This document shows, in pieces, positions 1 through 14,730 of a stretch of 64,000 bases of DNA. The DNA lies in NCBI GenBank assembly GCA_964489625.1, contig CAZAZM010000011.1, positions 189 to 64,188 of the forward strand. The letters are read 5' to 3'. The position numbers and the translations under genes are program-made. Source of the stretch: an uncultured Flavobacteriaceae bacterium (GTDB lineage Bacteria > Bacteroidota > Bacteroidia > Flavobacteriales > Flavobacteriaceae). The stretch's first letter is position 1; the number at the start of each line of letters is the position of its first letter. The notes beneath the pieces were generated by a model. That model saw only the letters and a list, made by a program, of their open reading frames with translations. It was not told the origin of the DNA and did no database searches.

Positions 1-346
1 TCTGGATCTCCCGGATGAGCAGGGCCAGCGAAAGTATCAACAGGACCAGGGCAACGCCAAACACCCATACGGCAACCAGGTGCTGCTCGATGTAGATCAG
101 GAACATGGTGAGCACGCAGAGCAAGAGGCTGGATATCCCGAAGATCTGCATGGACCGGGTCAGGTACAGCCTTTTGCGGAGGTTGACGATCTGGCGCATC
201 AGGGACTCATCTTTCTCCTTCAGGTACTTCTCCTTGAGATTGCGAACCACCGAGGCATAGGCCAGGAATCGGTTCGTATAGGCCAGCATGATCAGGGAGA
301 TCGCGGAGAAAAGAAGCGCAGGCGTGGTGAGGGTAAGTTGTTCCAT
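1..346 (-). CDS. DUF2721-family membrane protein (runs off the window start)
   Basis: Not in the ORF track. My translation from ATG 346 is MEQLTLTTPALLFSAISLIMLAYTNRFLAYASVVRNL...LYLTRSMQIFGISSLLLCV, the typical DUF2721 N-terminus with hydrophobic helices. Confidence 0.85.
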   Translation of the reverse strand, partial: MEQLTLTTPALLFSAISLIMLAYTNRFLAYASVVRNLKEKYLKEKDESLMRQIVNLRKRLYLTRSMQIFGISSLLLCVLTMFLIYIEQHLVAVWVFGVALVLLILSLALLIREIQ

Positions 347-350
347 GTCT

Positions 351-358
351 CAAATTTA
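351..358 (-). promoter_or_regulatory. Bacteroidota -7 promoter box TAAATTTG, 4 nt upstream of the DUF2721 ATG
   Basis: Exact TAnnTTTG match on the minus strand. Confidence 0.6.
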
Positions 359-405
359 CGTGAATTTCCTTTTTTTGGTATATTTAGCCATCAACTATTC
401 AGCCC

Positions 406-1167
406 GTGATCAAATTCTTTCGAAAAGAACGCCAGAAAATGGCGGATGAGAACCAACTTCTCAAGTACAGTCGCTATGCAATCGGCGAGATCGTCCTGGT
501 CGTTATCGGAATACTTATCGCCCTGCAGATCAACAACTGGAACGAAGATCGGCTCGCAAGAATCGAAGAGAAAAGAATTCTCTCCAATCTCCACCAGGAA
601 TTCGAGAAGAACAAGATCCTTCTGGACACCTGTATTTCCAAGAACCAAAAAGCGCTCGGCAGCATGAAGGAGATCATGGATCTCATTGCCAAGGGAGATT
701 CGCAGGGAACACCTGACGATCCGGAGAATTCAAAACTCGACCGGTTGTTGTTTCACAGCTTCGAGCACCTGAACTACTTTCCTTCCCAGCATTCCCTGAA
801 CGAGCTCATACAGTCAGGAAAGATGCAGTACCTGAGGAATGATCGGTTGAAATCCCTGCTGTACCAATGGTCTAGCGCTTTGGACACTTCCCTGGAAGGA
901 TTCAACGGGGTCGATCTAAAAGTGGAGCAGGACATCCTGCCCTATCTGACTCGGAATTACCCCCTGAAGGATATGGACCGCTTCGGCCCGCTTGCCTGGA
1001 AGGAAGGCTCGACCCTTGAATCCGACAAGACCCTGATCCTGAGAGAACTGGAATTTGAAAACCTGATCGATGACAATCTTTACCGGTTGAATGACTTTCT
1101 CTTTTCACTTTCGGAGCTGAGGGTCCTTATCGAAGAGATCCTCACCGAATCTTCCAAATACGAATGA
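406..1167 (+). CDS. DUF6090-family protein (N-terminal TM helix)
   Basis: MIKFFRK...YAIGEIVLVVIGILIALQINNWNE is the characteristic flavobacterial DUF6090 N-terminus; GTG start. Confidence 0.85.
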   Translation: MIKFFRKERQKMADENQLLKYSRYAIGEIVLVVIGILIALQINNWNEDRLARIEEKRILSNLHQEFEKNKILLDTCISKNQKALGSMKEIMDLIAKGDSQGTPDDPENSKLDRLLFHSFEHLNYFPSQHSLNELIQSGKMQYLRNDRLKSLLYQWSSALDTSLEGFNGVDLKVEQDILPYLTRNYPLKDMDRFGPLAWKEGSTLESDKTLILRELEFENLIDDNLYRLNDFLFSLSELRVLIEEILTESSKYE

Positions 1168-2309
1168 CCGGGATGACAGAGCTCAACCACCCCATATACG
1201 TCCTGGCCGTGCTTTGCCTGATGGTCATCCTCTCGGTTTACGCGGGAAATACGCGTTGGGGCAAGAAATTCGGGGCGGCGTTGCTCGTGATCGTCTTCAC
1301 GGCGGTCGTGGCGAACCTGGGCCTGATCCCCTCCGCTTCCAACTCCATCCCATTGTACGAGGGCATATTCGAATACCTGGCACCCCTTTCCATCTTCTAC
1401 CTGCTCCTGGGAGTGAACCTGAAAAGCCTGAAAAGGGCCGGTGCGCCCATGATCATCCTGTTTGTACTGGGTTCCCTGTCGACGGCCCTGGGCGTACTGG
1501 CTGCCTGGAACCTGGTCTCTCCGCAGCAGGCACTGGGTGAGGATGCCCGGGTAATAGCAGGCATGCTCGCAGGAACCTATACCGGGGGAAGCGCAAATTT
1601 CAATGCCGTGGCCCTCGAATACGACATGCAGGAGAAGGGAGTGCTTTACGCCGGCACCATTGCCGTTGATAACGTGGTCACCACGCTCTGGATCGTAATA
1701 ACCCTGGCGATTCCGGCCGTCATGAGCAGGTTGTGGAAAGGAAGAAAAGTTGCTCAGGACACGCTCGAAGCCCACATTCCGGAGAACGAGAGCATTGACT
1801 TTCTTTCCCTGATCTGGCTTGCTTTTTTTGGGGTGGCCGCCTTCTTCCTTTCGGAGGCCATCAACAGGTTGGCCCCCCAGATCCCGTCAATACTGATCCT
1901 TTCAACCCTGGGTGTGATACTGGCCCAGTTCTCCTTCGTGGCAAAACTGAAGGGCAGTCATTTCCTCGGACTCTACCTGGTCTACCTGTTCCTGGCAGTG
2001 ATCGGGGCCTATTGTGAAGTTGCCGCGGTGATCGAGCTGAGCTCGGTTGGAACGACCCTGCTCGCCTTTGCCTCGCTGAGCGTGCTGGTCCATGGATTGC
2101 TGATCATCGGCTTGGGAAGCCTGCTGTTCCGCGATTGGGAAATGATCGCCATCGCGAGCCAGGCAAATGTGGGAGGAGGCACCACCGCCATGGCATTGGC
2201 GGAGACCTTCAAAAGAAATGAGCTGATATTGCCGGCCATCCTGGTCGGATCTCTGGGCACGGCGCTCGGAACCTATATCGGGTTTTCGGTGGTTTACCTG
2301 CTGGGTTAG
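1164..2309 (+). CDS. DUF819-family multi-pass membrane protein
   Basis: 381 aa with about 11 hydrophobic segments; GTYTGGSANFNAV and ASQANVGGGTTAMALA motifs; ATGA overlap with the upstream gene. Confidence 0.85.
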   Translation: MTGMTELNHPIYVLAVLCLMVILSVYAGNTRWGKKFGAALLVIVFTAVVANLGLIPSASNSIPLYEGIFEYLAPLSIFYLLLGVNLKSLKRAGAPMIILFVLGSLSTALGVLAAWNLVSPQQALGEDARVIAGMLAGTYTGGSANFNAVALEYDMQEKGVLYAGTIAVDNVVTTLWIVITLAIPAVMSRLWKGRKVAQDTLEAHIPENESIDFLSLIWLAFFGVAAFFLSEAINRLAPQIPSILILSTLGVILAQFSFVAKLKGSHFLGLYLVYLFLAVIGAYCEVAAVIELSSVGTTLLAFASLSVLVHGLLIIGLGSLLFRDWEMIAIASQANVGGGTTAMALAETFKRNELILPAILVGSLGTALGTYIGFSVVYLLG

Positions 2310-2620
2310 GGCATTCGGCGCTTGATCATGTTCTCGAGCTCCTCGATCCTGTCGAGCAGTTGCATGGTCAGGGCCGCCCCGGAAATATTGAGCTCCAGGT
2401 CCCTTCTCAGGCGCTGGACCTTCTGAACCCTCCACAGGGTCTCCCGTGAGAATCTCCAACGCTTTTCCCTGACCTTAAGGGGCTCGATGATGCCTTCGTA
2501 GACAAGCTCGGCGATCTCCCCTTCCGGGATCATGCATCGCTCGCTGAGCTGTACCATGCTTATGGGACCCTCTTCTTCCAACAGGATTCCCTCGTAGACT
2601 TTGACGATCTTTCTTTTCAT
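2306..2620 (-). CDS. cbpM: Chaperone modulator CbpM (MerR-like)
   Basis: 104 aa, RLRRDLELNISGAALTMQLLDRIEEL; directly downstream of cbpA. Confidence 0.85.
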   Translation of the reverse strand: MKRKIVKVYEGILLEEEGPISMVQLSERCMIPEGEIAELVYEGIIEPLKVREKRWRFSRETLWRVQKVQRLRRDLELNISGAALTMQLLDRIEELENMIKRRMP

Positions 2621-2624
2621 CGGT

Positions 2625-3596
2625 TTATAGTTTAAAATTGGCCCTTGGATCGAAGTTCAAAGTCTTCATATCCTCATAGATCTTCTTTGCTCTCTCACTG
2701 TCGCCCGGTGGAAGGACCACGTTGAGCACCACGTACAGGTCTCCGGGCACCTTGGATGGAATGCCCTTTCCCTTCAGTCGCAGCTTCTTGCCGCTTGCGG
2801 AGCCCTTGGGCACCTTGAGCTTTATGTTGCCTTCCGGGGTGGGCACAGATATGGATTCGCCCAGTGCCGCCTCCCAGGGAGCGATTGGCACATTGACATA
2901 GACATCCCCACCCTCCACGTGATAGTTCTTTCCAGACAGGTATTCGATTGTGATGTACAGGTCCCCCGGTTTGCCGCCATTGATCCCCGGCCCTCCTTTC
3001 CCGGCCAGGCGGATCCTCTTGCCGTTCTGCACTCCCTTGGGAATCTTGACGTTCAGGGTGACCGGCGCGTACCTCATGGCTCCCGTGGGATCCAGGGTCG
3101 GGGATTCAAAGGATATCTGCCGCGTGGCCCCTTTGTATGCGTCCTCCAGCGGGATCGCAATGCTGGCGTTCATGTCCTGACCCTTGCGGCTGACGGCCTG
3201 TCTCCGCTGCTGAAAGCCGCTTCCGGCCCGCCTGCTTCCGAACAGGTTTTCAAAGAAGTCGCTGTATTCTCCGCCCAGGTCGCCAAAATCGAAGCCCCCG
3301 GCTCCAAAATCCTGCCCGCCGGTGGGTTCATACCTCCTGTAGTACTGCTTTTGCTGCGCCTGCTGCTCCTTTCCGGCCTTCCAATCGGCTCCGAACTCGT
3401 CATAGGCCTTTCTCTTCTCCGGATCCTTGAGCACCTCGTAGGCCTCCGCGACCTCCTTGAAGTTCTTTTCCGCGTCAGCAGCCTTGTTGACGTCGGGATG
3501 ATACTTCCTCGCGAGCTTCCTGTACTCCTTCTTGATCTGCCCCTCGGAAGCGTCTTTGGGCACTCCCAGAATCTTGTAGTAATCCTTGAATTCCAC
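2625..3596 (-). CDS. cbpA: Curved-DNA-binding DnaJ-class co-chaperone CbpA
   Basis: J-domain with HPD (KYHPDVNK), G/F-rich region, DnaJ C-terminal domain, no Zn finger; GTG start. Confidence 0.9.
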
Positions 3597-3646
3597 TATT
3601 CCTGTTTTTCGGATGGTTTCTTCCCTTTTCTATGGGACCGGTCCCT

Positions 3647-3654
3647 CAAATTTA
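3647..3654 (-). promoter_or_regulatory. -7 promoter box TAAATTTG for cbpA-cbpM
   Basis: Exact TAnnTTTG about 50 nt upstream of the start. Confidence 0.55.
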
Positions 3655-3700
3655 CGAACTAATCTATAGAAATTCACGTTTCGGTTCATATAAGGGCTCA

Positions 3701-4579
3701 TTATTCGCCCTTCAGCAGCTCGATGTATTCATCCAGATTGGCCTTCACCTCAGGCTCCAGGTCGGGCTCGCGGATGTCCGAGTACCCGGAAAGCACCTCG
3801 TATAGGGTGCGGGTGACCATATACCGCGCCGTGGCCTTGTCATCCGCGGGGATTACGTACCAGGGGGCATGAGGCTTCGAGGTTTGGTTGATGGCCTCTT
3901 CATAGCACTCCTGGTATTTGGGCCATAGGGCTCGCTCTTCCAGGTCGCCCGGTGAGAACTTCCAGTGCTTGTTGTCCTTCTCAAGTCGCCTGAGCAACCT
4001 GTTCTTCTGCTCCTCCTTGGATAGATGAAGGAAGAATTTGAAGACGATCGTGCCGTTCTGGCTCAGATGCCTCTCAAAGCTCCTGATCTGCTCAAAGCGC
4101 TGCTCCCAAAACGCGGGGCCAATGTCCTCGACCCGTTCAATGCCCGGCAGGTTCTCTCCGAGTATGTACTCAGGGTGCACCCGGGTCACCAGCACATTCT
4201 CGTAATGGGTACGGTTGAACACGGAGAATTTCCCCCTTTCCGGCAGGGCCAGGTAATGCCTCCAGAGGTAATCGTGGTTCCGCTCGAGCTCCGTGGGCAC
4301 CTTGAAGCTGTGAACCACCACTCCTCTTGAGTTGAAATCCTTGAAGACCTCCCGGATCAGGCTGTCCTTGCCGGAGGTGTCCATGCCCTGCAAACAGACC
4401 AGGACCCCATATTTGCCATGGGCGTATTGAGTGTCCTGCAACTTGCCAAGCTTCCTGCGGACCTTTTTCATTGCGTCCTTTATGCTTTCCTCGTCCGCTT
4501 CCATGTCGAAACGGGTAGCTCTGCGAGAGAGGCTGACAGGGGCTTTTACCTTGAAATCGTCGGGGTGAAAATCTTTCAT
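3701..4579 (-). CDS. ppk2: Polyphosphate kinase 2 family, class III-like (NMP/NDP-phosphorylating)
   Basis: Walker A QGMDTSGKD, FNRTHYENVLV (Glu-type class III signature), PWYVIPADDK. Confidence 0.9.
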   Translation of the reverse strand: MKDFHPDDFKVKAPVSLSRRATRFDMEADEESIKDAMKKVRRKLGKLQDTQYAHGKYGVLVCLQGMDTSGKDSLIREVFKDFNSRGVVVHSFKVPTELERNHDYLWRHYLALPERGKFSVFNRTHYENVLVTRVHPEYILGENLPGIERVEDIGPAFWEQRFEQIRSFERHLSQNGTIVFKFFLHLSKEEQKNRLLRRLEKDNKHWKFSPGDLEERALWPKYQECYEEAINQTSKPHAPWYVIPADDKATARYMVTRTLYEVLSGYSDIREPDLEPEVKANLDEYIELLKGE

Positions 4580-4748
4580 GAGGGATAAGTTGATTGATGC
4601 TGTGAAAAGATAACAAGAATCCGGCAGTTTTCAAACAGGCAGGATCGTGGAGCATGCCCAAATTGCTCGTGGCAAATCCAATTCCGAAACCGAGAAAAAT
4701 AATTGTTGCAAAAGGAATCCACGTGTATCAACATATTCAAAAACAAAT

Positions 4749-4756
4749 TAACTTTG
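4749..4756 (+). promoter_or_regulatory. -7 promoter box TAACTTTG for the ppk2-led operon
   Basis: Exact TAnnTTTG, 23 nt before ATG 4780. Confidence 0.6.
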
Positions 4757-4779
4757 ATATTTAATGTATTAAAAAAACT

Positions 4780-5523
4780 ATGTCACTTTATCCGCTGGAA
4801 CACGACCAGGTATACCTCAATCTGCAGACCGAGCTGGTCTGGCTGCAACAGCATATCAAGGAGACGAATCAAAGGCTCATCATTCTGTTCGAAGGACGCG
4901 ACACTGCAGGCAAGGGAGGAGCCATCATGAGGTTCATTCGCTTCCTCAACCCGCGGCTGTTCAAGGTCGTGGCTCTGTCAAAGCCGACGGAAAAGGAGGC
5001 CGGGCAGTGGTATTTTCAAAGATACGTCGAACACCTTCCGGGGCCGGGAGAGATGGCTTTCTTCGACAGGAGCTGGTACAACCGGGCCGTGGTGGAACCC
5101 GTCATGGGATTCTGCACGCAGGAACAATACGACCTCTTCATGGAACAGGTGCTTCTTTTCGAGGACATGCTGGTCAAGGACGGGATCCTGCTCTTCAAGT
5201 TCTGGTTCTCCATCGATGCCGAGGAGCAGAAGAAGAGACTGGATGAGCGAGTTCACAATCCCTTGAAGCAATGGAAGATGAGCAGCGTGGACGTACAGGC
5301 ACAGTCGAAATGGGAGGATTTCACCAAATTCAAGAACGCGATGTTCGAGAAGACCTCCACCCAAAAATCACCCTGGGTGGTGATCAAGGGAAATGACAGG
5401 GAGCTTGCCCGGAAGGAGGCGATCAGGTATGTCGTCCACAACGTCAGCTATGAAAAGAAAGGGAAAACGGGCGAGCGGCTGACCCCTTCGGACGAGATTA
5501 TTTCGGTATACAAAAACGGTTAG
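4780..5523 (+). CDS. ppk2: Polyphosphate kinase 2, class I-like
   Basis: EGRDTAGKGG, FDRSWYNRAVVEPVMGFC, QWKMSSVD. Confidence 0.9.
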   Translation: MSLYPLEHDQVYLNLQTELVWLQQHIKETNQRLIILFEGRDTAGKGGAIMRFIRFLNPRLFKVVALSKPTEKEAGQWYFQRYVEHLPGPGEMAFFDRSWYNRAVVEPVMGFCTQEQYDLFMEQVLLFEDMLVKDGILLFKFWFSIDAEEQKKRLDERVHNPLKQWKMSSVDVQAQSKWEDFTKFKNAMFEKTSTQKSPWVVIKGNDRELARKEAIRYVVHNVSYEKKGKTGERLTPSDEIISVYKNG

Positions 5524-5527
5524 AAAA

Positions 5528-6589
5528 ATGGATCTGAAAGACGGTGTAAAAACATCCGAAAACAAAGTGTCGTCGGAGGCGATGAAACTGAGCGAATTCG
5601 TCAAGGACAAAAAGAACTCCCTGATTGACCGGCTCGAGAGCTTTGAGGACATCATCAACCTGGAAGTGGGTGACACCGGTCTCAACCGGGCCAAGGGGCT
5701 TGAGCGCGAATTCAACATAAGACAGCTTTACCTGAAATACGAGGGTGACAATCCCACGGGAACCCAAAAGGACCGCATCGCCTTTGCCCAGGTCTATGAT
5801 GCCCTCAGAAGACGCTTCAAGATCATTGTCGTGGCGACCTGCGGAAATTATGGGGTGGCCGTGGCGCTGGCTGCCAACCTGGCCGGGCTCAAGTGCAAGA
5901 TCTTCATACCCAGCTCCTATCACACCGAGCGCGTCCGTGAGATGGAGTCTCTGGGGGCGGAGATCATTCGCCTGCCGGGAACCTATGAGGACGTGGTGAC
6001 GGCCAGCAGCGAACTGTGTGAAAAGCACAGGTGGTACGATGCCAATGCCGGGGGCGCCAACACTCCCCTTCAGATATCGACCTACTCCCAGATCGCCAGC
6101 GAGATCTTCGAAGACCTGGGCGATGCCCCCAAATACTGCGCAGTGCCCGTTTCAAACGGCACTTTGCTCGCCGGGGTTTTCAGGGGTTTCGTGAGCCTCT
6201 ACAAAAGAGGAAAGACCTCTCGCATCCCGAAAATGGTGGCTGCCTCCTCTACCCGCAAGAACCCCATCATCCAGTCCTTCAAGCAGGGACTGGACTATTG
6301 CAGGGACCTCAGCCCGGAAGTGATCCGTGAGACGCGCCTGAACGAACCCCTGATCAACTGGCACAGCTTTGACGGGGAGGAGGCATTGTATGCCCTGCGG
6401 GAGTCCAATGGAGAGGCCTTCAACGTCAGCGACAGCAAACTTAAGGAAATGACCAGCATCCTGTCGAAAAAGGAAGGCTTGCGCATCCTTCCCGCTTCCA
6501 CGGCGGGGCTGATCGCCCTGCTCGAGCTCAACGGGACCCGGGACTTTGAACCCGATCGGTATGTGGCCATATTAACAGCAAAAAATTGA
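5528..6589 (+). CDS. Fold-type II PLP-dependent enzyme (threonine synthase-like, substrate unknown)
   Basis: LKYEGDNPTGTQKDR (PLP Lys), ATCGNYG, VPVSNGT, PASTAGL. Confidence 0.85.
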   Translation: MDLKDGVKTSENKVSSEAMKLSEFVKDKKNSLIDRLESFEDIINLEVGDTGLNRAKGLEREFNIRQLYLKYEGDNPTGTQKDRIAFAQVYDALRRRFKIIVVATCGNYGVAVALAANLAGLKCKIFIPSSYHTERVREMESLGAEIIRLPGTYEDVVTASSELCEKHRWYDANAGGANTPLQISTYSQIASEIFEDLGDAPKYCAVPVSNGTLLAGVFRGFVSLYKRGKTSRIPKMVAASSTRKNPIIQSFKQGLDYCRDLSPEVIRETRLNEPLINWHSFDGEEALYALRESNGEAFNVSDSKLKEMTSILSKKEGLRILPASTAGLIALLELNGTRDFEPDRYVAILTAKN

Positions 6590-6593
6590 ATTG

Positions 6594-7670
6594 ATGAAAA
6601 AAAACTCTATTGACGGGAAAGCCATAGTCTATTGCGAAGGAGCTTTCAACACACCCAATGGAAAAACAGCCCATGGGCTCGTCCGGTTCACAGAGAGATA
6701 CGAGATCGTAGGGGTCCTCGACAGGAACTACGCCGGCCATGACGCCGGGGAGGTGCTCGACGGCAAGCCCAATGGGGTGATGATCTACAAGAGCCTCGAA
6801 TCCGCGGAGAAAAAACTGCTCGAGAAGGGAATCGTCCCCAGGACCATGGTCATAGGCCTTGCCCCCGATGGCGGCAGGTTGCCGGCCTCGGCCAGGGGAA
6901 CGATCAAAAAGGCCCTGGAAATGGGCTGGAACGTGGACAGCGGCCTGCACGATTTCCTGACCAATGACGAGTCACTTGTCAGGCTGGCCCGGGAGAACCA
7001 GTGCACGATCAGGGACATCCGAAAGACCCCGGACAGGGACAAGCTCCACTTTTTCACCGGGGATATCGAGCGGGTCAAATGCCTAAAGCTCGCCGTACTG
7101 GGCACGGACTCCGCCATCGGCAAGCGAACAACGGCCTGGATACTGGTCCATGCCCTCCGGGAAGCCGGCTACAAGGCCGAAATGGTGGGTACGGGGCAGA
7201 CCGCCTGGATGCAGGGAGCCAAATACAGCATGATCATGGACAGCTGCATCAATGACTTCGTTTCGGGAGAGATCGAGCATGCCGTAGTGAGCGCCTATGA
7301 TAACGAGCATCCGGACGTTATCGTGATCGAAGGACAGGGAAGCCTCATGAACCCGGCCTATCCGGGTGGTTTCGAGATCCTGGCCGCAGGGCGCCCGGAC
7401 TACGTCATCCTGCAGCACGCGCCCAAGCGACTGGAATACGACGGGTTCCCCGGGTATCCCCTGCATCCGCTGAAGGAGCAGATACAGGCCATAGAGATCA
7501 TTTCGAGTAAGAAGGTGATCGCAGTGACGGTCAACCACGAGAACATGGAGGAACATGAGATCCCGGAGGCCTGCAAAAAGATCACGGAAGAGACCGGGCT
7601 TCCGGCCTTCGACGTGCTGGCGGACGGAGCCGGTGAACTGGTCCAACACTTAAAAGACAAGATGAAATGA
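6594..7670 (+). CDS. DUF1611-family protein (DgcN-like N-acetyltransferase candidate)
   Basis: GKTAHGLVR, GTDSAIGKRTT P-loop-like motif, IEGQGSL; ATG 6594 (track uses TTG 6591). Confidence 0.85.
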   Translation: MKKNSIDGKAIVYCEGAFNTPNGKTAHGLVRFTERYEIVGVLDRNYAGHDAGEVLDGKPNGVMIYKSLESAEKKLLEKGIVPRTMVIGLAPDGGRLPASARGTIKKALEMGWNVDSGLHDFLTNDESLVRLARENQCTIRDIRKTPDRDKLHFFTGDIERVKCLKLAVLGTDSAIGKRTTAWILVHALREAGYKAEMVGTGQTAWMQGAKYSMIMDSCINDFVSGEIEHAVVSAYDNEHPDVIVIEGQGSLMNPAYPGGFEILAAGRPDYVILQHAPKRLEYDGFPGYPLHPLKEQIQAIEIISSKKVIAVTVNHENMEEHEIPEACKKITEETGLPAFDVLADGAGELVQHLKDKMK

Positions 7671-9211
7671 GCCGCATACGCGACCTGGTCGTATTCGAGA
7701 AGCTGAAGGTTCACAAGGTCCTGGTAGAACCCAAAAGGGTTCGGGCCACCTATTCCGTGTATTCGGGAAATGGGAGCATTGAAAGCCGGGAGCTGATCTA
7801 CAGCTACAACGAACGATATTTCGACCCTGGAGACTGGGAGGATGTCAACCTCGCTTCCATGATGCTTGCCCAGGTGGCGCTGAATTACGGCCTGTTCTTT
7901 GAGACGATCGAATTCGACGGGGTGTATGACGAAGCCGACCAATCCTTTCTCAGGAGCATGATCGAGAATACCTCCCGGGAGATCCTGGTCAACAAGATCC
8001 TGAACCCCACCGAGTTCCTCAAGCCTCCCTACAATGAGACCCAGACAGAGACCATGGAGAGATACACCGCTGCAAAGCTGGTTTTCCTGAACTCGGATCA
8101 CGAGAATCTCAAGAGGAAAGAAGGCTCGCCAAAGCCGGACCTTGACAAATATGCCATCCTGAGCAGTGGCGGCAAGGACAGCCTTTTGACCTACGGCCTG
8201 GTCTCCGAGATCGGGGAAGCGCATCCCGTTTTCATCAACGAGTCGGGTAGGCACTGGTTCTCCGCAGTAAACGCTCACGCCTACTTCAAGGAGCACGAGC
8301 CCAATACGGCCAAGCCCTGGTGCAACAGCGACCGGATCTTCAACTGGATGGCCAAGCAGATGCCCTTTATCAGGGAGAATTTTCAGCAGATCCGGGCAGA
8401 CGTCTACCCGATTCGTCTCTGGACGGTCGCGGTATTCCTGTTCGGCGTATTGCCCATAGCGAGGAAACGCGGGATCGGCAATGTCCTGATCGGGGACGAG
8501 TACGATACGACCATTAAGGGAAACTTCCAGGGAATATCGCATTATCATGCCCTGTACGATCAGAGCAAGTACTTTGACAACGCCATGACCCGCTACTATC
8601 GAAAAAAAGGCTGGGGCATTTACCAATACTCGATACTCAGGAGCCTGTCAGAGCTGCTCATCCTCAAAATACTGGTCCGGCGTTACCCGGAGCTCCAGGC
8701 CCAGCAGGTCTCCTGCCATGCGGCGCACGAGAAGGACGGAAGGATGCTTCCCTGCGGTAACTGCGAGAAATGCAGGAGGATCATCGGCATGCTGAAGGCC
8801 CTGGATGAGGACCCCCAACGCTGCGGTTACACCCCGGAACAGGTGAACAAAGGGCTTGCTGCCCTGTCGAACAAGGGGGTCAAGCAATTGGGAACGGACG
8901 CGGCGCACCTTTACCATTTGCTCCTTTCCAAGGGCCTGATCCCTGAGAACGAGCATACGAAAAGATTGGCCAGGGAGCACGCCTACATTGAAAGACTGCG
9001 CTTCGATTCTGAGAGAAGCCTCATAGCGGACCTTCCCGTCCACGTCCGAAAACCCCTGTTTAAGATCCTGGGGGAGAGCACGGAAGGGGCCGTTCTTCTC
9101 AAAGAGAGGAAATGGGTGGACCTGAACATCGACGAGGAGTTCATGAGCAGCCCTCACTTCCTGTCCCTCAAAGAAGCACCTGTACAGGACCAGCCGAAGG
9201 ATCAGACCTGA
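7667..9211 (+). CDS. PP-loop adenine-nucleotide alpha-hydrolase with a Cys cluster (MurL/QueC-like), function unknown
   Basis: LSSGGKDSLL, YSILRSLSELLI, SCH...PCGNCEKC; ATGA overlap with DUF1611. Confidence 0.75.
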   Translation: MSRIRDLVVFEKLKVHKVLVEPKRVRATYSVYSGNGSIESRELIYSYNERYFDPGDWEDVNLASMMLAQVALNYGLFFETIEFDGVYDEADQSFLRSMIENTSREILVNKILNPTEFLKPPYNETQTETMERYTAAKLVFLNSDHENLKRKEGSPKPDLDKYAILSSGGKDSLLTYGLVSEIGEAHPVFINESGRHWFSAVNAHAYFKEHEPNTAKPWCNSDRIFNWMAKQMPFIRENFQQIRADVYPIRLWTVAVFLFGVLPIARKRGIGNVLIGDEYDTTIKGNFQGISHYHALYDQSKYFDNAMTRYYRKKGWGIYQYSILRSLSELLILKILVRRYPELQAQQVSCHAAHEKDGRMLPCGNCEKCRRIIGMLKALDEDPQRCGYTPEQVNKGLAALSNKGVKQLGTDAAHLYHLLLSKGLIPENEHTKRLAREHAYIERLRFDSERSLIADLPVHVRKPLFKILGESTEGAVLLKERKWVDLNIDEEFMSSPHFLSLKEAPVQDQPKDQT

Positions 9212-9266
9212 AATAACAACAGAAAAACAAACCCGGAGTTTTCACTCACTCCAGAAACAGAACATC

Positions 9267-10067
9267 ATGACGCATCACACAAAAAAATCGAGTTTCCTCT
9301 GGGAGCACATGACCTGGCCGGAAATAGAAGAATATCTAAAGAAAGTAGACACCGTCCTGCTCCCCTGCGGGGCCATTGAACAGCACGGGCCTCACCTTCC
9401 CGTCGACGTGGACTTCTTTGACGCCCGCTACATGGCCTACAAGGTGGCCGAGGCCTGCGAGGAACCCAGGCCTCTGGTATTGCCTACGGTCCCTTTTGGC
9501 GTTTCCTACCACCACGACGACTTCAAGGGAACCCTGAGCGTCACCAACGACGCCCTGTCCAAGTTCATCTATGACATCGGGATGAGCCTGGCGAAGAACG
9601 GGGTGAGAAAGATCATCATACTGAACGGGCACGGGGACAACGCCCCCACCCTGAGCTACGCGGCCCAGATGATCAACCGGGACGCCAAGATCTTCGTCTG
9701 CGTCGACACCGGGGAGACCAGTGACATCGACCTGTACAGGCTGATCGACACCCCGAACGACATTCACGCCGGTGAGATCGAGACCAGCACTACCCTTGCC
9801 CTGCGTCCGGACATGGTGCAGATGGACAAGGCAGTGAACGAGACCCTGAAATTCGGCAGCAAGTTCCTGGACTATGACAATGAGCGCAGCGTCAACTGGT
9901 ACGTGCACACCCACAAGATCTCGGAGAGCGGGGTCATGGGCGACGCGACCAAGGCCACCGCTGAAAAAGGCCGGAAGATGTGGGACCTGATGATCGAGCA
10001 CATGGTCCACTTCGTGGAGTCGATCAAGAACACCCCCATGGAAGAGATCTATCAAAAACGGTACTGA
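9267..10067 (+). CDS. Creatininase-family amidohydrolase
   Basis: GAIEQHGPHLPVDVD, NGHGDN, HAGEIETS metal and catalytic motifs. Confidence 0.9.
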   Translation: MTHHTKKSSFLWEHMTWPEIEEYLKKVDTVLLPCGAIEQHGPHLPVDVDFFDARYMAYKVAEACEEPRPLVLPTVPFGVSYHHDDFKGTLSVTNDALSKFIYDIGMSLAKNGVRKIIILNGHGDNAPTLSYAAQMINRDAKIFVCVDTGETSDIDLYRLIDTPNDIHAGEIETSTTLALRPDMVQMDKAVNETLKFGSKFLDYDNERSVNWYVHTHKISESGVMGDATKATAEKGRKMWDLMIEHMVHFVESIKNTPMEEIYQKRY

Positions 10068-11119
10068 TGAAGATCACCAAAGCCTCATACGAACGACTCG
10101 ACCTCAAGCTTCAGACCCCCTACACCATTGCCTACGAGACGGTATCAAGCGCCACCAACTTCATCCTGCGCCTGGAAACCGACAGCGGGCATACCGGCTT
10201 CGGCTGTTCGGCCCCGGACCCCCTCCTCACCGGATTGAACGAGCAGCAGGCCGAGCAGGTGATATCCGGCAAGGTGTTGCCCTTTCTGGAAGGCAGGGAT
10301 CCCTTTCAGTACGTTCGAATCCTGGAGGAACTCAAACAGGTGATCGGAAGCAGCCGCTCTGTGCTGGCCATGGCCGACATGGCTCTGCTCGACCTGGTCT
10401 CCAAGAAAGCCGGGGTCCCATTGTACAAGTACCTGGGCGGGTACAGGGATAGCATAGCCACCAGCATCACCATAGGGATCCTGCCCCTGTCAGACACCCT
10501 GGCGGAGGCCAGGGAGCACGTGAAAAAGGGTTTTTTCATACTCAAGCTGAAAGGAGGCATTTCCGTGGAGGAAGACATTGAAAAATTGATCCGGCTCAGG
10601 GAAGAGTTCCCGAAGGTCATCTTGCGCTTCGACGGCAACCAGGGCTACAGCCAGGAAGATTCCCTTGCCTTTGTCAGCGGCACCCAGCAAGTGGGCATAG
10701 AGATCTTCGAGCAGCCCACACGAACCGACGAAGAGAGCAAGCTGGGTTGGGTAACTCAGAAGGTTGACATTCCCGTAATGGCGGACGAGAGTCTCAAAAC
10801 CCTTTCCGACACTTTCCGACTCGCCCGCCACGAAAGAATAGACATGATCAACATCAAGCTCATGAAGGTGGGAGGCATCATGGAGGCCCTGCACATCAAT
10901 TCGGTGGCGAAATCGGCCGAACTGGAGGCCATGGTCGGCTGCATCGACGAATGCGGACTGGGCATTTCAGCCGGGTTGCATTTTGCACTTAGCAGACCTA
11001 ACATTGAGTACGCCGACCTGGACGGTCACCTGGAAATGGAAAACGACCCCTTCACCGACCTCTTCGATCTGAAGAATGGAATCCTGTACCCCAGGGAGGT
11101 GCCCGGCCTGGGTATTTAG
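10067..11119 (+). CDS. Enolase-superfamily L-Ala-D/L-Glu epimerase / DgcA-like racemase
   Basis: KLK, RFDGNQG, FEQP, MADES, NIKLMKVGG, YADLDG (DxD). Real start ATG 10067 overlaps the upstream stop (TGATG); the track extends it spuriously to 9980. Confidence 0.9.
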   Translation: MKITKASYERLDLKLQTPYTIAYETVSSATNFILRLETDSGHTGFGCSAPDPLLTGLNEQQAEQVISGKVLPFLEGRDPFQYVRILEELKQVIGSSRSVLAMADMALLDLVSKKAGVPLYKYLGGYRDSIATSITIGILPLSDTLAEAREHVKKGFFILKLKGGISVEEDIEKLIRLREEFPKVILRFDGNQGYSQEDSLAFVSGTQQVGIEIFEQPTRTDEESKLGWVTQKVDIPVMADESLKTLSDTFRLARHERIDMINIKLMKVGGIMEALHINSVAKSAELEAMVGCIDECGLGISAGLHFALSRPNIEYADLDGHLEMENDPFTDLFDLKNGILYPREVPGLGI

Positions 11120-11129
11120 ATTAAATTGG

Positions 11130-11137
11130 TATATTTA
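11130..11137 (+). promoter_or_regulatory. Possible -7 box TATATTTA for corA-mscS
   Basis: One-mismatch TAnnTTTG in the 56-nt gap. Confidence 0.35.
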
Positions 11138-11175
11138 AAGTGTAACATGCTAAATGCGCCAATAAATCAATCGGG

Positions 11176-12270
11176 ATGTCTATAAAAGCCAAGATGTCGT
11201 TAAAAAGACGGTTCAAACGATCCAGCCGGTCAAAAAAGAAAGGATTGGCTCCGGGATCAGTCGTCTATATAGGCTTAAAGGGAGACAATGACCTCAAGAT
11301 CGACCTGGTAAGATACAATCAGGACAGCTATGAAGAAGCTTCTTTCAATTCGGTAGAACCTTACGAAACGGTACTGGACCCCTCACATGTGAACTGGCTC
11401 ACCTGGAACGGTCTCAACCGGGTTCAGGAGATCGAATCCGTCGGTCATCAAATGGGAATCTCCGTCCTGGACATAGAGGACATCGTCAACACGGCCCAGC
11501 GACCGGCGCTGCACGTGTCCGATCATTACCTGGTGCTGATCATGAAGATGTTGAGTTTCGACAATGAGCTCCTGCTTGGCAGGGAACACATCAGCTTCGT
11601 GTTGTTCAAAGGCTCACTCCTTGTTTTTCACGAGAGCGAGCAGGACGAATTCCCTACTGTTAAAAAACGTATGCAGTCGAAGACCGGGCGCATTCGCAGC
11701 CGTGGTGCCGACTACCTGCTCTTCGCCCTCATGGACTCCATCGTGGACAACTACTTCCACCTGATGGAAACCATGGCCGACAAGGTGGAAGCCCTGGAAG
11801 ACAAGATCTTCGAAGGAAAGGAAAGTGACGATGTGACCAATGAGATCCAGATCCTGAAAAAGGAGATTCTCAGAATACGCCGGGCCATTAACCCCCTTTC
11901 AGAGATCACGAGCCGTTTGGACAGAATGAGCAATGATCTGCTCAGCCAGGAAACCCGGGAGTTCATGAAAGACCTGCACGAGCACGTGGCCCAGGTGGTG
12001 GAATCGGTGGAAATGAACCGTGAGATGATCTGGGGTCTCATGGACATGCACATGTCCCTGATGAGCAACAAGATGAACGAGGTTATGAAAGTGCTAACCA
12101 TCATTTCGACCATCTTCATCCCCCTGTCCTTCATCGCGGGCGTATACGGGATGAACTTCGAGTACATGCCAGAGCTCAAATACCACAACGCCTATTTCAT
12201 CCTGCTTGGAGTGATGGTGCTGGTCATCCTGGGCATGCTTTACTATTTCAAGAGAAAGAAATGGCTATAA
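11176..12270 (+). CDS. corA: Magnesium/cobalt transporter CorA
   Basis: KKGLAPGSVVYIG N-terminus; two C-terminal TM helices with the YGMNF signature. Confidence 0.92.
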   Translation: MSIKAKMSLKRRFKRSSRSKKKGLAPGSVVYIGLKGDNDLKIDLVRYNQDSYEEASFNSVEPYETVLDPSHVNWLTWNGLNRVQEIESVGHQMGISVLDIEDIVNTAQRPALHVSDHYLVLIMKMLSFDNELLLGREHISFVLFKGSLLVFHESEQDEFPTVKKRMQSKTGRIRSRGADYLLFALMDSIVDNYFHLMETMADKVEALEDKIFEGKESDDVTNEIQILKKEILRIRRAINPLSEITSRLDRMSNDLLSQETREFMKDLHEHVAQVVESVEMNREMIWGLMDMHMSLMSNKMNEVMKVLTIISTIFIPLSFIAGVYGMNFEYMPELKYHNAYFILLGVMVLVILGMLYYFKRKKWL

Positions 12271-12271
12271 T

Positions 12272-12772
12272 ATGACAACGGAAACCCAAATAATCCTGAC
12301 TGCGGCTCTTTTTGGCGCCATGCTCGCCATGATGTACCTCACCCGGCTGTCCTTGAGGAAATTCACCCTTCTCAGGTCGATCGACGTCAACCGGAGAAAG
12401 GTCATTTTGAACCTGATCTACTTCTCGATCTATATCCTGACCTTTATCCTTTTGGGAATCATCTGGGGCGTGAACATGAACCAGCTGACCCTTTTCGTGT
12501 CTTCGGTGCTTGCCGTTCTCGGGGTTGGGTTCTTCGCCCAGTGGTCCATTCTGTCGAACCTGACCTCCAGCGTTATACTGTTCTTCAACCATCCCGTTCG
12601 GATCGGTGACCGGATCAGGATACTTGACAAGGACTTTGACCTTACCGGGGAGGTTACCGACATCTCGGGATTCTTCTTTTTCATGACCACGGACAAGGGG
12701 GAGCACATCACCCTGCCCAACAACCTGGTGATGCAGAAGGGCATTGAGCTGATCAAGGCCAAGGAGGAATGA
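12272..12772 (+). CDS. Short MscS-family mechanosensitive channel
   Basis: LSNLTSSVILFFNHPVRIGDRI, then the beta domain; lacks the distal C-terminal alpha/beta domain (166 aa). Confidence 0.85.
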   Translation: MTTETQIILTAALFGAMLAMMYLTRLSLRKFTLLRSIDVNRRKVILNLIYFSIYILTFILLGIIWGVNMNQLTLFVSSVLAVLGVGFFAQWSILSNLTSSVILFFNHPVRIGDRIRILDKDFDLTGEVTDISGFFFFMTTDKGEHITLPNNLVMQKGIELIKAKEE

Positions 12773-13546
12773 TCACTTCACCTCGACCTCTGCCCCGCAA
12801 TTGGGGCAGGTGCAGGTCCTCTTCTTTTTCTGGATCTTCTCGACAAATGCGGAGCTGATGATCCCCGTAGGAAGCGCCACGATACCAACCCCGATCAGTG
12901 CAATGGCCCCGCTCAGGATCTTTCCCATGGCAGTTACCGGGTAGACGTCCCCATAGCCCACGGTTGTCAGGGTGGCCACCGCCCACCAGAAGGAATGGCC
13001 GATGCTGGCGAACTTGTCGGGCTGAACCTCTCCCTCGATATAGTACATGAGCGTCGAGGCCAGGACCAGCATGATGAAGGCTATGAACAGGGTTATGCCC
13101 AGCTCGGAACGGGTTTCCCTCAGCACGCTGCTGATCGTTTTCATGGACTTGGAGTACCTGCCCAGCTTGAAGATCCGGACCAGCCTGGTGATCCTGAGAA
13201 TCCGGACGACCCTGAGGTCAAACGGAAAGATCAGGGGCAGGTAAAAGGGTAGTATGGCGATCAGGTCGATCAGCCCGAAGGTGGAAAAGAAGAAGCCCAC
13301 CCTCTTGCGGAAGGAGCCCCCGGGATAGCGCTCATCCAGGTCAGAGGTCCAGAGTCGAAGCAGGTATTCAATGGTGAATACCACCACCGAGAAGAGCTCG
13401 AAAGCGTCCAGGAACCAGGTGTTCATCTCCCTTACCTCCTTGTAGGAACCGATTATCAGCGAGACCACGTTCAGAATGATCAGCCCGTAGATGAACCGGA
13501 TGAAACCGGGGTTGTGCTCAATGAAGTCGTAGATTCTTTTTTTCAT
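12773..13546 (-). CDS. Voltage-gated K+ channel-like ion transporter (6TM)
   Basis: Arg-rich S4 LRVVRILRITRLVRIFKLGR, filter TLTTVGYGD, C-terminal CTCPNCG. Confidence 0.9.
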   Translation of the reverse strand: MKKRIYDFIEHNPGFIRFIYGLIILNVVSLIIGSYKEVREMNTWFLDAFELFSVVVFTIEYLLRLWTSDLDERYPGGSFRKRVGFFFSTFGLIDLIAILPFYLPLIFPFDLRVVRILRITRLVRIFKLGRYSKSMKTISSVLRETRSELGITLFIAFIMLVLASTLMYYIEGEVQPDKFASIGHSFWWAVATLTTVGYGDVYPVTAMGKILSGAIALIGVGIVALPTGIISSAFVEKIQKKKRTCTCPNCGAEVEVK

Positions 13547-13589
13547 GGGATTCGTCGATTAGAAGCCCCGTAAAAATAAAGAAAAGAAT

Positions 13590-13620
13590 AAAAAAACCTG
13601 ATAGAAAGCTCTATCAGGTT
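13590..13620 (-). terminator. Intrinsic terminator (10-bp stem plus U7)
   Basis: Minus strand AACCTGATAG-AGCTTT-CTATCAGGTT followed by a T-run. Confidence 0.7.
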
Positions 13621-13661
13621 CGGTCAGTTTCAAAACTTTCCCCCGAGTATTTTGAAACACA
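13590..13661 (-). ncRNA. Candidate two-hairpin small RNA or attenuator leader
   Basis: Perfect TAACTTTG box at 13665-13672 (minus), hairpin GTTTCAAAA..TTTTGAAAC (13627-13658), then a terminator; no credible ORF. Confidence 0.4.
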
Positions 13662-13797
13662 TGCCAAAGTTAAACAAAATATATTTTGTGAAAAAGACAC
13701 AATGAAAAAAAATAAGAATTTTTTCGCTTCATTTTTGAAACGGACAGAATCCGTATCTTTACAAAGCACTCGCAATGAGTCAAAAGGATCGTGAATC

Positions 13798-14730
13798 ATG
13801 AAGAAATACCACAACCTGGGGGAGCTACTCGTCGATTACCGAAAGGAGAACGATCTTTCCCAGTCCGACTTTGCGGCTCAGATGAACGTGGACGTTAGAA
13901 CGGTTCAGCGCTGGGAAAAAGACGAGACGCTGGTCAAACCGGAAAAGGAAAAGGAGCTTGCGGATGATACCCTCCTGCCCTATCAGCTGATCCGGAACCT
14001 CAACGCGGCTACCCCAATTCCAACATTCTATGACTTCAGGATCCGGAAATACTCGCTGACCCGCCTCAACAACGAATTGCCGGATGCGGATTGGTTCAAG
14101 GAGAGGATCGATGAGCTCTCGAACAGAACGCGGTACATAGATCCTGACAAGGACATAGAGATCCTGCGCAGGGACCTCAGGACGCAGAAAATGGGAGAGA
14201 CCCCGCTGAGGCTGGACCTTTTGAAAAGGGCCCAGGAGCTGCTCCCTGAGCTGAACCTGATCATCATGGATCGGTTCAACAATTATTCGGGTCACAGCAT
14301 TTTCTTCCCGATCAGCTCACTTTGCCACAGGAAACTGGTGCGTCGTGAAATGCGGCCGGACCAGATCCGGGCGGAGGACCTGGTGAATTACCGAAACCGG
14401 GAGCGACCGGTTTTCCTGAACTATGACATCACGGCGGACTCCAATGACAACATCTTCTTCCTGGCCCACCAGATCCTGAAGTTCTTCGTCGAACTGCCGA
14501 CAGATGATTACGTATTCTGCAGTTTCACCTCGAGATACGACTCTTACAGGCTCAACAATCAGATGCAACTGGATTTGGTCTGGGAGGACGAGGCGGAGAA
14601 AGATGCCCTGGGACTGGAATACCATCCCAGGTTCTATGAAGGGAACCTCAACTCCTATCTGTCAGACCTGAGGGATCAGGGTTACGATTCTTTTACCCGT
14701 TACAACAACCAGGGCTTCGGGCAGCTTTAG
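13798..14730 (+). CDS. XRE-family HTH transcriptional regulator with an unrecognised C-terminal domain
   Basis: LSQSDFAAQMNVDVRTVQRWEK HTH at the N-terminus; about 240 aa unassigned; TATCTTTA box at 13754-13761. Confidence 0.8.
   Translation: MKKYHNLGELLVDYRKENDLSQSDFAAQMNVDVRTVQRWEKDETLVKPEKEKELADDTLLPYQLIRNLNAATPIPTFYDFRIRKYSLTRLNNELPDADWFKERIDELSNRTRYIDPDKDIEILRRDLRTQKMGETPLRLDLLKRAQELLPELNLIIMDRFNNYSGHSIFFPISSLCHRKLVRREMRPDQIRAEDLVNYRNRERPVFLNYDITADSNDNIFFLAHQILKFFVELPTDDYVFCSFTSRYDSYRLNNQMQLDLVWEDEAEKDALGLEYHPRFYEGNLNSYLSDLRDQGYDSFTRYNNQGFGQL

Follow-up and report, generated by a model that had tools for sequence, protein, structure and literature searches.

A horizontally spread five-gene cassette of Flavobacteriaceae and other, mostly marine bacteria combines homologs of amino acid-acylating, -adenylating, -epimerizing, and amide-hydrolyzing enzymes

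Results

The locus

The window analyzed here, a stretch of 64,000 nucleotides (nt) from contig CAZAZM010000011.1 of an uncultured Flavobacteriaceae bacterium to which all positions without a locus handle refer, contains at positions 5528 to 11119 a copy of a five-gene cassette that is self-contained, horizontally spread, and fixed across phyla. The cassette begins with the gene of a ThrC-like enzyme of fold type II that depends on pyridoxal phosphate (PLP) (5528 to 6589; PALP family, PF00291, 5e-58), followed by a gene for a DUF1611 protein (6594 to 7670, ATG at 6594 and TTG at 6591; PF07755, 6e-67, and PF17396, 3e-23). The third gene (7667 to 9211) encodes a PP-loop adenylating enzyme of 514 amino acids (aa), P0001, with an SGGKDS motif and a QueC fold, the fourth a creatininase-family binuclear-metal amidohydrolase (9267 to 10067; PF02633, 1e-72), and the fifth an enolase-superfamily enzyme of the MLE subgroup that resembles dipeptide epimerases (10067 to 11119, ATG at 10067; MR_MLE_N and MR_MLE_C domains). 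All six genes from 4780 to 11119, that is, the cassette and the polyphosphate kinase gene ahead of it, are on the + strand. The cassette genes are tightly packed: 4 nt separate the stop codon of the PLP gene from the ATG of the DUF1611 gene, the latter overlaps the gene of P0001 in ATGA at 7667 to 7670, a gap of 55 nt precedes the creatininase-family gene, and the stop codon of this gene overlaps the start of the epimerase gene by 1 nt in TGATG at 10065 to 10069. The original prediction for this DNA had named a DUF1611 protein with the motifs GTDSAIGKRTT and EGQGSL, an enolase-superfamily epimerase with KxK and DxD motifs, and a creatininase-family gene coupled to the latter; all three are borne out, the first by both Pfam matches and the alignment, the second by K160-x-K162 and D317-x-D319, and the third by the TGATG overlap.

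A scan of one genome per species yielded 45 loci with a relative of P0001. At these loci, tblastn with the window proteins recovered the order PALP, DUF1611, PP-loop enzyme, creatininase, epimerase at 50 to 85% identity wherever the contig allows, and the PALP gene was syntenic in 38 of them. Furthermore, all-against-all clustering of 647 open reading frames from cassette loci left only these five families as conserved. The hosts, which are mostly marine, belong to the Flavobacteriaceae, Saprospiraceae, Cytophagales, Calditrichota, Desulfobacterales, SAR324, Aminicenantes/Acidobacteriota, and Marinimicrobia and thus to at least six phyla. Within the window's own phylum, the Bacteroidota, the cassette is patchy: it was found in 4 of 301 sampled genomes, the source genome counted, and in 1 of 22 other genomes of the family. 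Taken with the high identity between copies from different phyla, this patchy presence suggests that an accessory module has spread horizontally. The arrangement is a fixed cassette rather than an interrupted Dgc pair. The original prediction had described Dgc-like genes split by two extra enzymes, and the genes and their spacing are indeed as described, but the intervening enzymes are part of the cassette, as is a PLP gene further upstream; the proposal of a Bacteroidota variant, which had left this ThrC-like enzyme out, does not hold, since the same cassette occurs in several phyla.

No conserved transporter or catabolic regulator was found at the cassette loci, and the cassette itself contains neither transporter nor peptidase. 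A role as stand-in for an absent housekeeping racemase or synthase was considered and ruled out, because murI, alr, dapF, and thrC are all present elsewhere in the source genome. Full-text literature searches turned up no paper describing the five-gene cassette. An insertion of about 8 kb interrupts the cassette in two Muriicola loci (L004 and L006); it has genes for a PPDK_N-domain protein, two proteins of the beta-lactamase family, and a protein resembling TLC/MFS-HEAT transporters.

The PLP enzyme

The PLP enzyme passes the cut-off of one model only, NF004996 (PRK06381; 400 bits, cut-off 266), a cut-off that was reached in none of 14 control genomes. With the threonine synthase model TIGR00260, it scores 99.9 bits against a cut-off of 167, and a canonical thrC is found elsewhere in the genome. 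The PLP lysine is kept, and the STGNT loop of ThrC is replaced by TCGNYG. The ThrC arginine that we take to bind the substrate phosphate aligns to a leucine in a part of the alignment that is uncertain. Judged by these features, the PLP enzyme is probably not a threonine synthase.

The DUF1611 and enolase proteins in comparison to DgcN and DgcA

The DUF1611 protein has a Rossmann-like N domain and a P-loop C domain, and its two motifs were seen in the alignment. A DUF1611 gene and a gene of an MLE-subgroup enolase in one operon are also what the cassette has in common with the DgcN-DgcA pathway (EC 2.3.1.312 and EC 5.1.1.25), the reactions of which are cited in PMC11747546. Both enolases have the KxK motif, the metal ligands, and the DxD motif, and for either system it is plausible that acylation precedes inversion. 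On this likeness rests the claim that the locus is a variant of D-glutamate catabolism, in which DUF1611 would acetylate D-Glu, the enolase would racemize N-acetyl-D-Glu, and the creatininase homolog would deacetylate N-acetyl-L-Glu. The homology to DgcN (E = 3.5e-48) and DgcA (E = 1.4e-36), the presence of KxK and DxD in DgcA, and the intact metal site of the hydrolase speak for it. However, both proteins stay far below the respective equivalog cut-offs: the DUF1611 protein reaches 164.3 bits with the DgcN model NF041892 (cut-off 480), with a match confined to residues 84 to 354, and the enolase 126.3 bits with the DgcA model NF042940 (cut-off 400). Compared to the annotated dgcN-dgcA pairs of Pantoea and Vibrio tritonius plasmids, the identity is 30 to 32% for DgcN, over residues 84 to 357 only, and 26 to 27% for DgcA. 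Furthermore, the genuine dgcN and dgcA genes abut or overlap and are located next to transporters, with no creatininase gene, whereas their two counterparts in the cassette are 2.4 kb apart (7671 to 10066) with two more conserved enzymes between them, are always linked to a PLP enzyme, and have no adjacent transporter.

The nearest relatives of the cassette DUF1611 protein are found in a different context. It is 40 to 46% identical to DUF1611 proteins from Rhodobacterales and Vibrio plasmids, the genes of which are translationally coupled to genes of PLP racemases resembling ornithine racemase (Orr). In a midpoint-rooted maximum-likelihood tree of 12 sequences, the cassette sequences form a clade (support 100/99) whose sister is this Orr-coupled clade, and DgcN sits on a separate long branch. 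Two such plasmid modules, each consisting of a DUF1611 gene that overlaps the gene of an Orr-like racemase, are L065:7848-10219 on a plasmid of Aliiroseovarius and L066:7869-10207 on a plasmid of Vibrio lentus; the plasmids are marine, and the module is uncharacterized. Judged by scores and tree, the DUF1611 and enolase proteins of the cassette are not orthologs of DgcN and DgcA. More generally, the recurrent neighbors of DUF1611 genes are stereo-inverting enzymes, namely, DgcA, a dipeptide epimerase together with a D-aminoacylase, or an Orr-like racemase, and further pairs of DUF1611 and enolase genes are present in the genomes behind the loci L013, L039, and L020 (G301 to G303). By analogy with these systems, we infer that the DUF1611 protein is an N-acyltransferase or ligase. 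In Haloferax volcanii, plasmid pHV4 (L067:5968-9783) carries a DUF1611 gene, a dipeptide epimerase gene, a D-aminoacylase gene, and a peptide ABC transporter together; its DUF1611 and epimerase proteins are below the DgcN/DgcA cut-offs as well and make up another distinct DUF1611/epimerase system.

The catalytic and metal-binding set of the epimerase-like enzyme is invariant in the cassette (K160, K162, D189, E215, D240, K264, D317, and D319), comprising KxK, the second lysine, three metal ligands, and DxD. The protein is nevertheless below every NCBIfam epimerase cut-off, including those of the L-Ala-D/L-Glu epimerase models NF041118 (231 bits, cut-off 500) and NF011708 (83.5 bits, cut-off 343). 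We also considered the DxD motif as a discriminator between dipeptide and N-acetyl substrates, but it fails, since genuine DgcA keeps it. The structure model of the enzyme (predicted local distance difference test [pLDDT] score, 88.8) fits best to 3rit, with a template modeling (TM) score of 0.95 and 37% identity; the TM score with 1jpm is 0.93. 3rit is the cationic dipeptide epimerase of Methylococcus capsulatus, solved with L-Arg-D-Lys, and 1jpm and 1tkk are structures of the L-Ala-D/L-Glu epimerase YkfB. Both enzymes (TM scores of 0.93 to 0.95, 35 to 37% identity) have all catalytic, metal, and DxD residues in common with the cassette enzyme, and 3rit also has the D-E motif after strand 7 that corresponds to D294-E295, which is invariant in the cassette family. 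They differ from it in operon context and in the 20s loop: where YkfB and also 3rit have an arginine, the cassette enzyme has Y23-E24. Each of the 33 cassette sequences that reach these positions has the same two residues, and D51 and D323 vary hardly at all. Glu24 aligns with Arg24 of Bacillus subtilis YkfB, which Klenchin et al. in 2004 reportedly found to bind the Glu side chain. In DgcA, the same loop reads I-S-R (I-S-R-G; Pantoea and V. tritonius), and so it does in a second enolase of the source genome that resembles YcjG and DgcA.

The exchange of the loop arginine for an invariant Tyr-Glu, the acid-rich pocket, and the best match to 3rit make glutamate an unlikely substrate of the cassette epimerase; our best guess from these residues is a cationic one. 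This also bears on the D-glutamate route, since a pocket that is rich in acidic residues would repel N-acetyl-Glu. Neither does that route offer a role for the always-linked PLP and PP-loop enzymes, and a better candidate for a DgcA/YcjG-like enolase, with 223 bits, is encoded elsewhere in the genome. With the DUF1611 protein grouping with the Orr-coupled clade and the best structural match being an L-Arg-D-Lys epimerase, we regard the D-glutamate variant as very improbable. Its general logic of acylation, inversion, and deacylation nonetheless stays plausible, given the recurrent DUF1611/enolase pairs and the intact residues of the hydrolase. The second enolase of the source genome, whose 223 bits refer to the DgcA model, is encoded about 6 kb from murI (C16:5051-5791 and C16:11959-12912) and looks like the likelier enzyme for the recycling of peptidoglycan dipeptides.

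The PP-loop enzyme and the hydrolase

The 514-aa protein P0001 gave no Pfam or NCBIfam match at default thresholds, PF06508 included, and a search of the sequences in the Protein Data Bank with P0001 or its profile gave no meaningful match. Its family has an invariant SSGGKDS motif (S166 to S172) and an invariant cysteine cluster, C350/C363-G-x-C366-x-x-C369. The AlphaFold model (pLDDT 89) has an N-terminal domain of about 160 aa, and Foldseek matched it to QueC (2pg3 and 3bl5; probability 1.00), QatC (9y02), and Cap9 (9nto). These enzymes, which adenylate 7-carboxy-7-deazaguanine and form amides, have the central-domain fold, the SGGxDS PP-loop, and the C-terminal cysteine cluster in common with P0001, but the identity is only 12 to 17%, P0001 has the extra N-terminal domain as well as extra C-terminal helices, and its genes are not in a queuosine or defense context. 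The sequence neighborhood leads, at a distance, to MurL: the MurL model NF041275 matched 15 of 19 family members weakly (best, 3e-6), and 27 of the 30 nearest matches of P0001 in the ESM Atlas were MurL-family clusters. According to PMC5808125, MurL depends on ATP and Mg, forms AMP, and epimerizes the last residue of an acylated peptide in one direction only, from L to D. It is of a size similar to P0001 (about 450 to 510 aa). In contrast to MurL, P0001 has no mur context (no murD2 or other mur genes were found near the cassette), the genome has murI, and the partners are DUF1611, the PLP enzyme, and the creatininase-type hydrolase.

The hydrolase matches PF02633 over its full length (244.6 bits; gathering score, 31.3) and is below the cut-offs of both named subfamilies that were compared, MftE (TIGR03964; 143.4 bits, cut-off 172) and creatininase (TIGR04448; 122.9 bits, cut-off 235). 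Its segments E-Q-H, D, G-H-G-D, and H..E-T-S align with those of Pseudomonas putida creatininase that presumably hold the metal-binding and catalytic residues. With these residues conserved, the protein is a credible amide hydrolase and may be a deacylase. It differs from creatininase and MftE in that it has no creatinine or mycofactocin context and is often fused to the MurL-like enzyme.

Which parts of the cassette travel together

Such fusions of MurL-like and creatininase domains recur in P0102, P0123 (14 members), P0173, P0176, and L039 and, furthermore, in two genomes of the window's phylum as open frames of about 785 aa. P0173 and P0176 have only 26 to 29% identity and are outside the cassette. 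The recurrent fusions indicate that the firm partner of the hydrolase is the adenylating enzyme and not the DUF1611/epimerase pair. The earlier assignment of the creatininase homolog as the deacylase stays possible, given its metal and catalytic residues, but its constant partner is a MurL/QueC-like enzyme. Two other fusions were seen once each. P0125 is a DUF1611 protein fused to a MurL-like enzyme, a singleton that is possibly a frameshift and was given little weight, and in P0126 (825 aa), also a singleton cluster, a class I methyltransferase domain is joined to a MurL-like protein.

More distant relatives, at 30 to 35% identity and including a probably archaeal one, keep the trio of PALP, DUF1611, and MurL-like enzyme but have neither hydrolase nor epimerase. 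In the genome of L013, the cassette is reduced to PALP, MurL-like enzyme, and creatininase, and the sole pair of DUF1611 and enolase genes in this genome is a different, paralogous pair located elsewhere.

These associations bear on a catabolic explanation, in which a basic D-amino acid or its dipeptide, from peptidoglycan or marine peptides, would be salvaged by conversion from D to L: the DUF1611 protein and the epimerase would act as in the Dgc route, and the L-amino acid freed by the hydrolase would be broken down by the PLP enzyme. Consistent with salvage, other pairs of DUF1611 and enolase genes adjoin peptidases, D-aminoacylase-family genes, and peptide ABC transporters, the nearest DUF1611 clade is coupled to Orr-like racemases, and the pocket of the epimerase is similar to the one in a cationic dipeptide epimerase. 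On the other hand, the cassette never carries a transporter or peptidase, an ATP-consuming MurL-like step is unexplained in catabolism, and the trio persists where hydrolase and epimerase are gone. We consider salvage unlikely.

Neighboring genes

The PPK2 polyphosphate kinase gene (4780 to 5523, + strand; PF03976, 2e-87) ends 4 nt before the ATG of the PLP gene at 5528. PPK2 was found near the cassette in just one other locus (L031); the gene is outside the conserved cassette and probably cotranscribed with it in the source genome only. A second PPK2 gene (3701 to 4579, − strand) is divergent from it. PPK2 could recycle the AMP produced by the adenylating enzyme. An Rfam scan found no riboswitch or leader RNA in window positions 1 to 14000 or in six related loci, and a scan for promoters and terminators was no better than with shuffled sequence.

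Among 122 neighbor proteins, the commonest were fusions of a GNAT and a CN_hydrolase domain (7), extracytoplasmic function (ECF) sigma factors (5), MscS (3), and Usp (3). The fusion of GNAT and carbon-nitrogen hydrolase (509 aa; L004:13425-14954) is the sole recurrent enzyme neighbor, at about 7 to 8 loci. At 5 loci from different genera (L005:6963-7586, L008:6534-7223, L010:7190-7780, L021:7205-7780, and L044:6651-7220), the next gene ahead of the PLP gene, in the same orientation, encodes an ECF-type sigma-70 factor, which may regulate the cassette. Downstream of the cassette, the window has genes for ion channels at 11176 to 13546: CorA (11176 to 12270, + strand), an MscS-like protein of 166 aa, and an Ion_trans channel. 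MscS is also near the cassette in four other loci (L010, L021, L031, and L041), and a TrkA-type K+ channel gene immediately follows the epimerase gene on the JGI contig that carries P0125. The clustering of ion channels may be chance or a hint of osmotic adaptation.

It is imaginable that the product of the cassette is a small amide, perhaps a compatible solute such as an N-acylated amino acid amide, or a dipeptide, with the PP-loop enzyme as amide ligase or amidotransferase, the hydrolase as supplier of ammonia or an amine, and the epimerase setting the D-center. The nearest folds of P0001 include the amide-forming QueC, QatC, and Cap9, and the hydrolase is fused to the PP-loop enzyme, an arrangement that resembles NadE, GMP synthetase, and AsnB; glutaminase domains feed other PP-loop synthetases. 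That the cassette is without a transporter or catabolic regulator also fits biosynthesis, as do the mostly marine hosts, the GNAT and CN_hydrolase gene next to the cassette at 7 to 8 loci, and the recurrence of mechanosensitive, K+, and Mg2+ channels, Usp, and ECF sigma genes nearby. However, we know of no creatininase-family member that acts as an ammonia donor, the channel and stress genes are near the cassette in fewer than half of the loci and may be there by chance, and no product can be named. Amide synthesis is, in our view, rather unlikely.

Discussion

In sum, our analysis describes a mobile module of five enzymes, and we tentatively favor, by analogy to the systems above, an ATP-driven editing of stereochemistry by way of N-acyl intermediates, acting on an amino acid or dipeptide that is not glutamate and is probably basic. 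In this model, the PLP enzyme would make or consume an amino acid other than glutamate, one whose side chain is probably cationic, and DUF1611 would acylate its alpha-amino group, as in DgcN. The MurL-like enzyme would then use ATP to adenylate the N-acyl amino acid or dipeptide at its carboxylate, and adenylation would drive the inversion of the alpha-carbon, from L to D as in MurL, or else the formation of an amide. The enolase-type enzyme would equilibrate the N-acyl or dipeptidyl epimers, and the creatininase-type hydrolase would cleave the amide and free the product. The net effect would be a stereochemical editing of the amino acid at the expense of ATP.

Several points weigh against this model. 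Every enzymatic role in it is assigned by analogy. The similarity of P0001 to MurL is weak (10.9 bits with the MurL model, cut-off 700), and QueC-type enzymes such as QatC and Cap9 also form amides, so that the PP-loop enzyme may be a ligase or amidotransferase instead of an epimerase. If it is an epimerase, the pathway would contain two stereo-inverting enzymes, the MurL-like protein and the enolase, which looks redundant. Furthermore, the enolase epimerase is absent from the cassettes of L013 and L039, with or without the loss of DUF1611 as well; these losses and the trio-only relatives make it the least constant member of the cassette. Finally, the cationic nature of the substrate is suggested by one loop residue and the nearest crystal structure.

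The model of stereochemical editing may be carried one step further. A one-way, ATP-driven route to a D-configured, nonproteinogenic, and probably basic amino acid, or to its N-acyl or amide derivative, is possible, though less likely than not; in it, an adenylating epimerase of the MurL type and a deacylase of the creatininase fold would work together, and marine and sediment bacteria of many phyla would have acquired it horizontally, possibly as an adaptation to osmotic or envelope stress. To our knowledge, the pairing of a MurL-type epimerase and a creatininase-fold deacylase has no characterized precedent.

Marine organic matter contains a large pool of D-amino acids that is poorly understood, and few routes that interconvert D- and L-forms are known to us: racemases, DgcN/DgcA, the N-succinyl amino acid racemase pathway, and MurL. 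Homologs of three of these routes, a PLP enzyme, and a metallo-amidohydrolase come together in the cassette, a single mobile operon that is present in several phyla. What is new here is the argument about the substrate, from the exchange of the loop arginine for glutamate, the match to 3rit, and the Orr-coupled sister clade, together with the modular dissection of the cassette. Domain content alone is insufficient ground for the transfer of Dgc-like annotations. Finding the substrate would assign a function to the whole DUF1611 clade and to an unnamed MurL/QueC-like family (378 cluster representatives, E values up to 0.001), and it would correct the name "threonine synthase" that the PLP enzyme carries through PRK06381.

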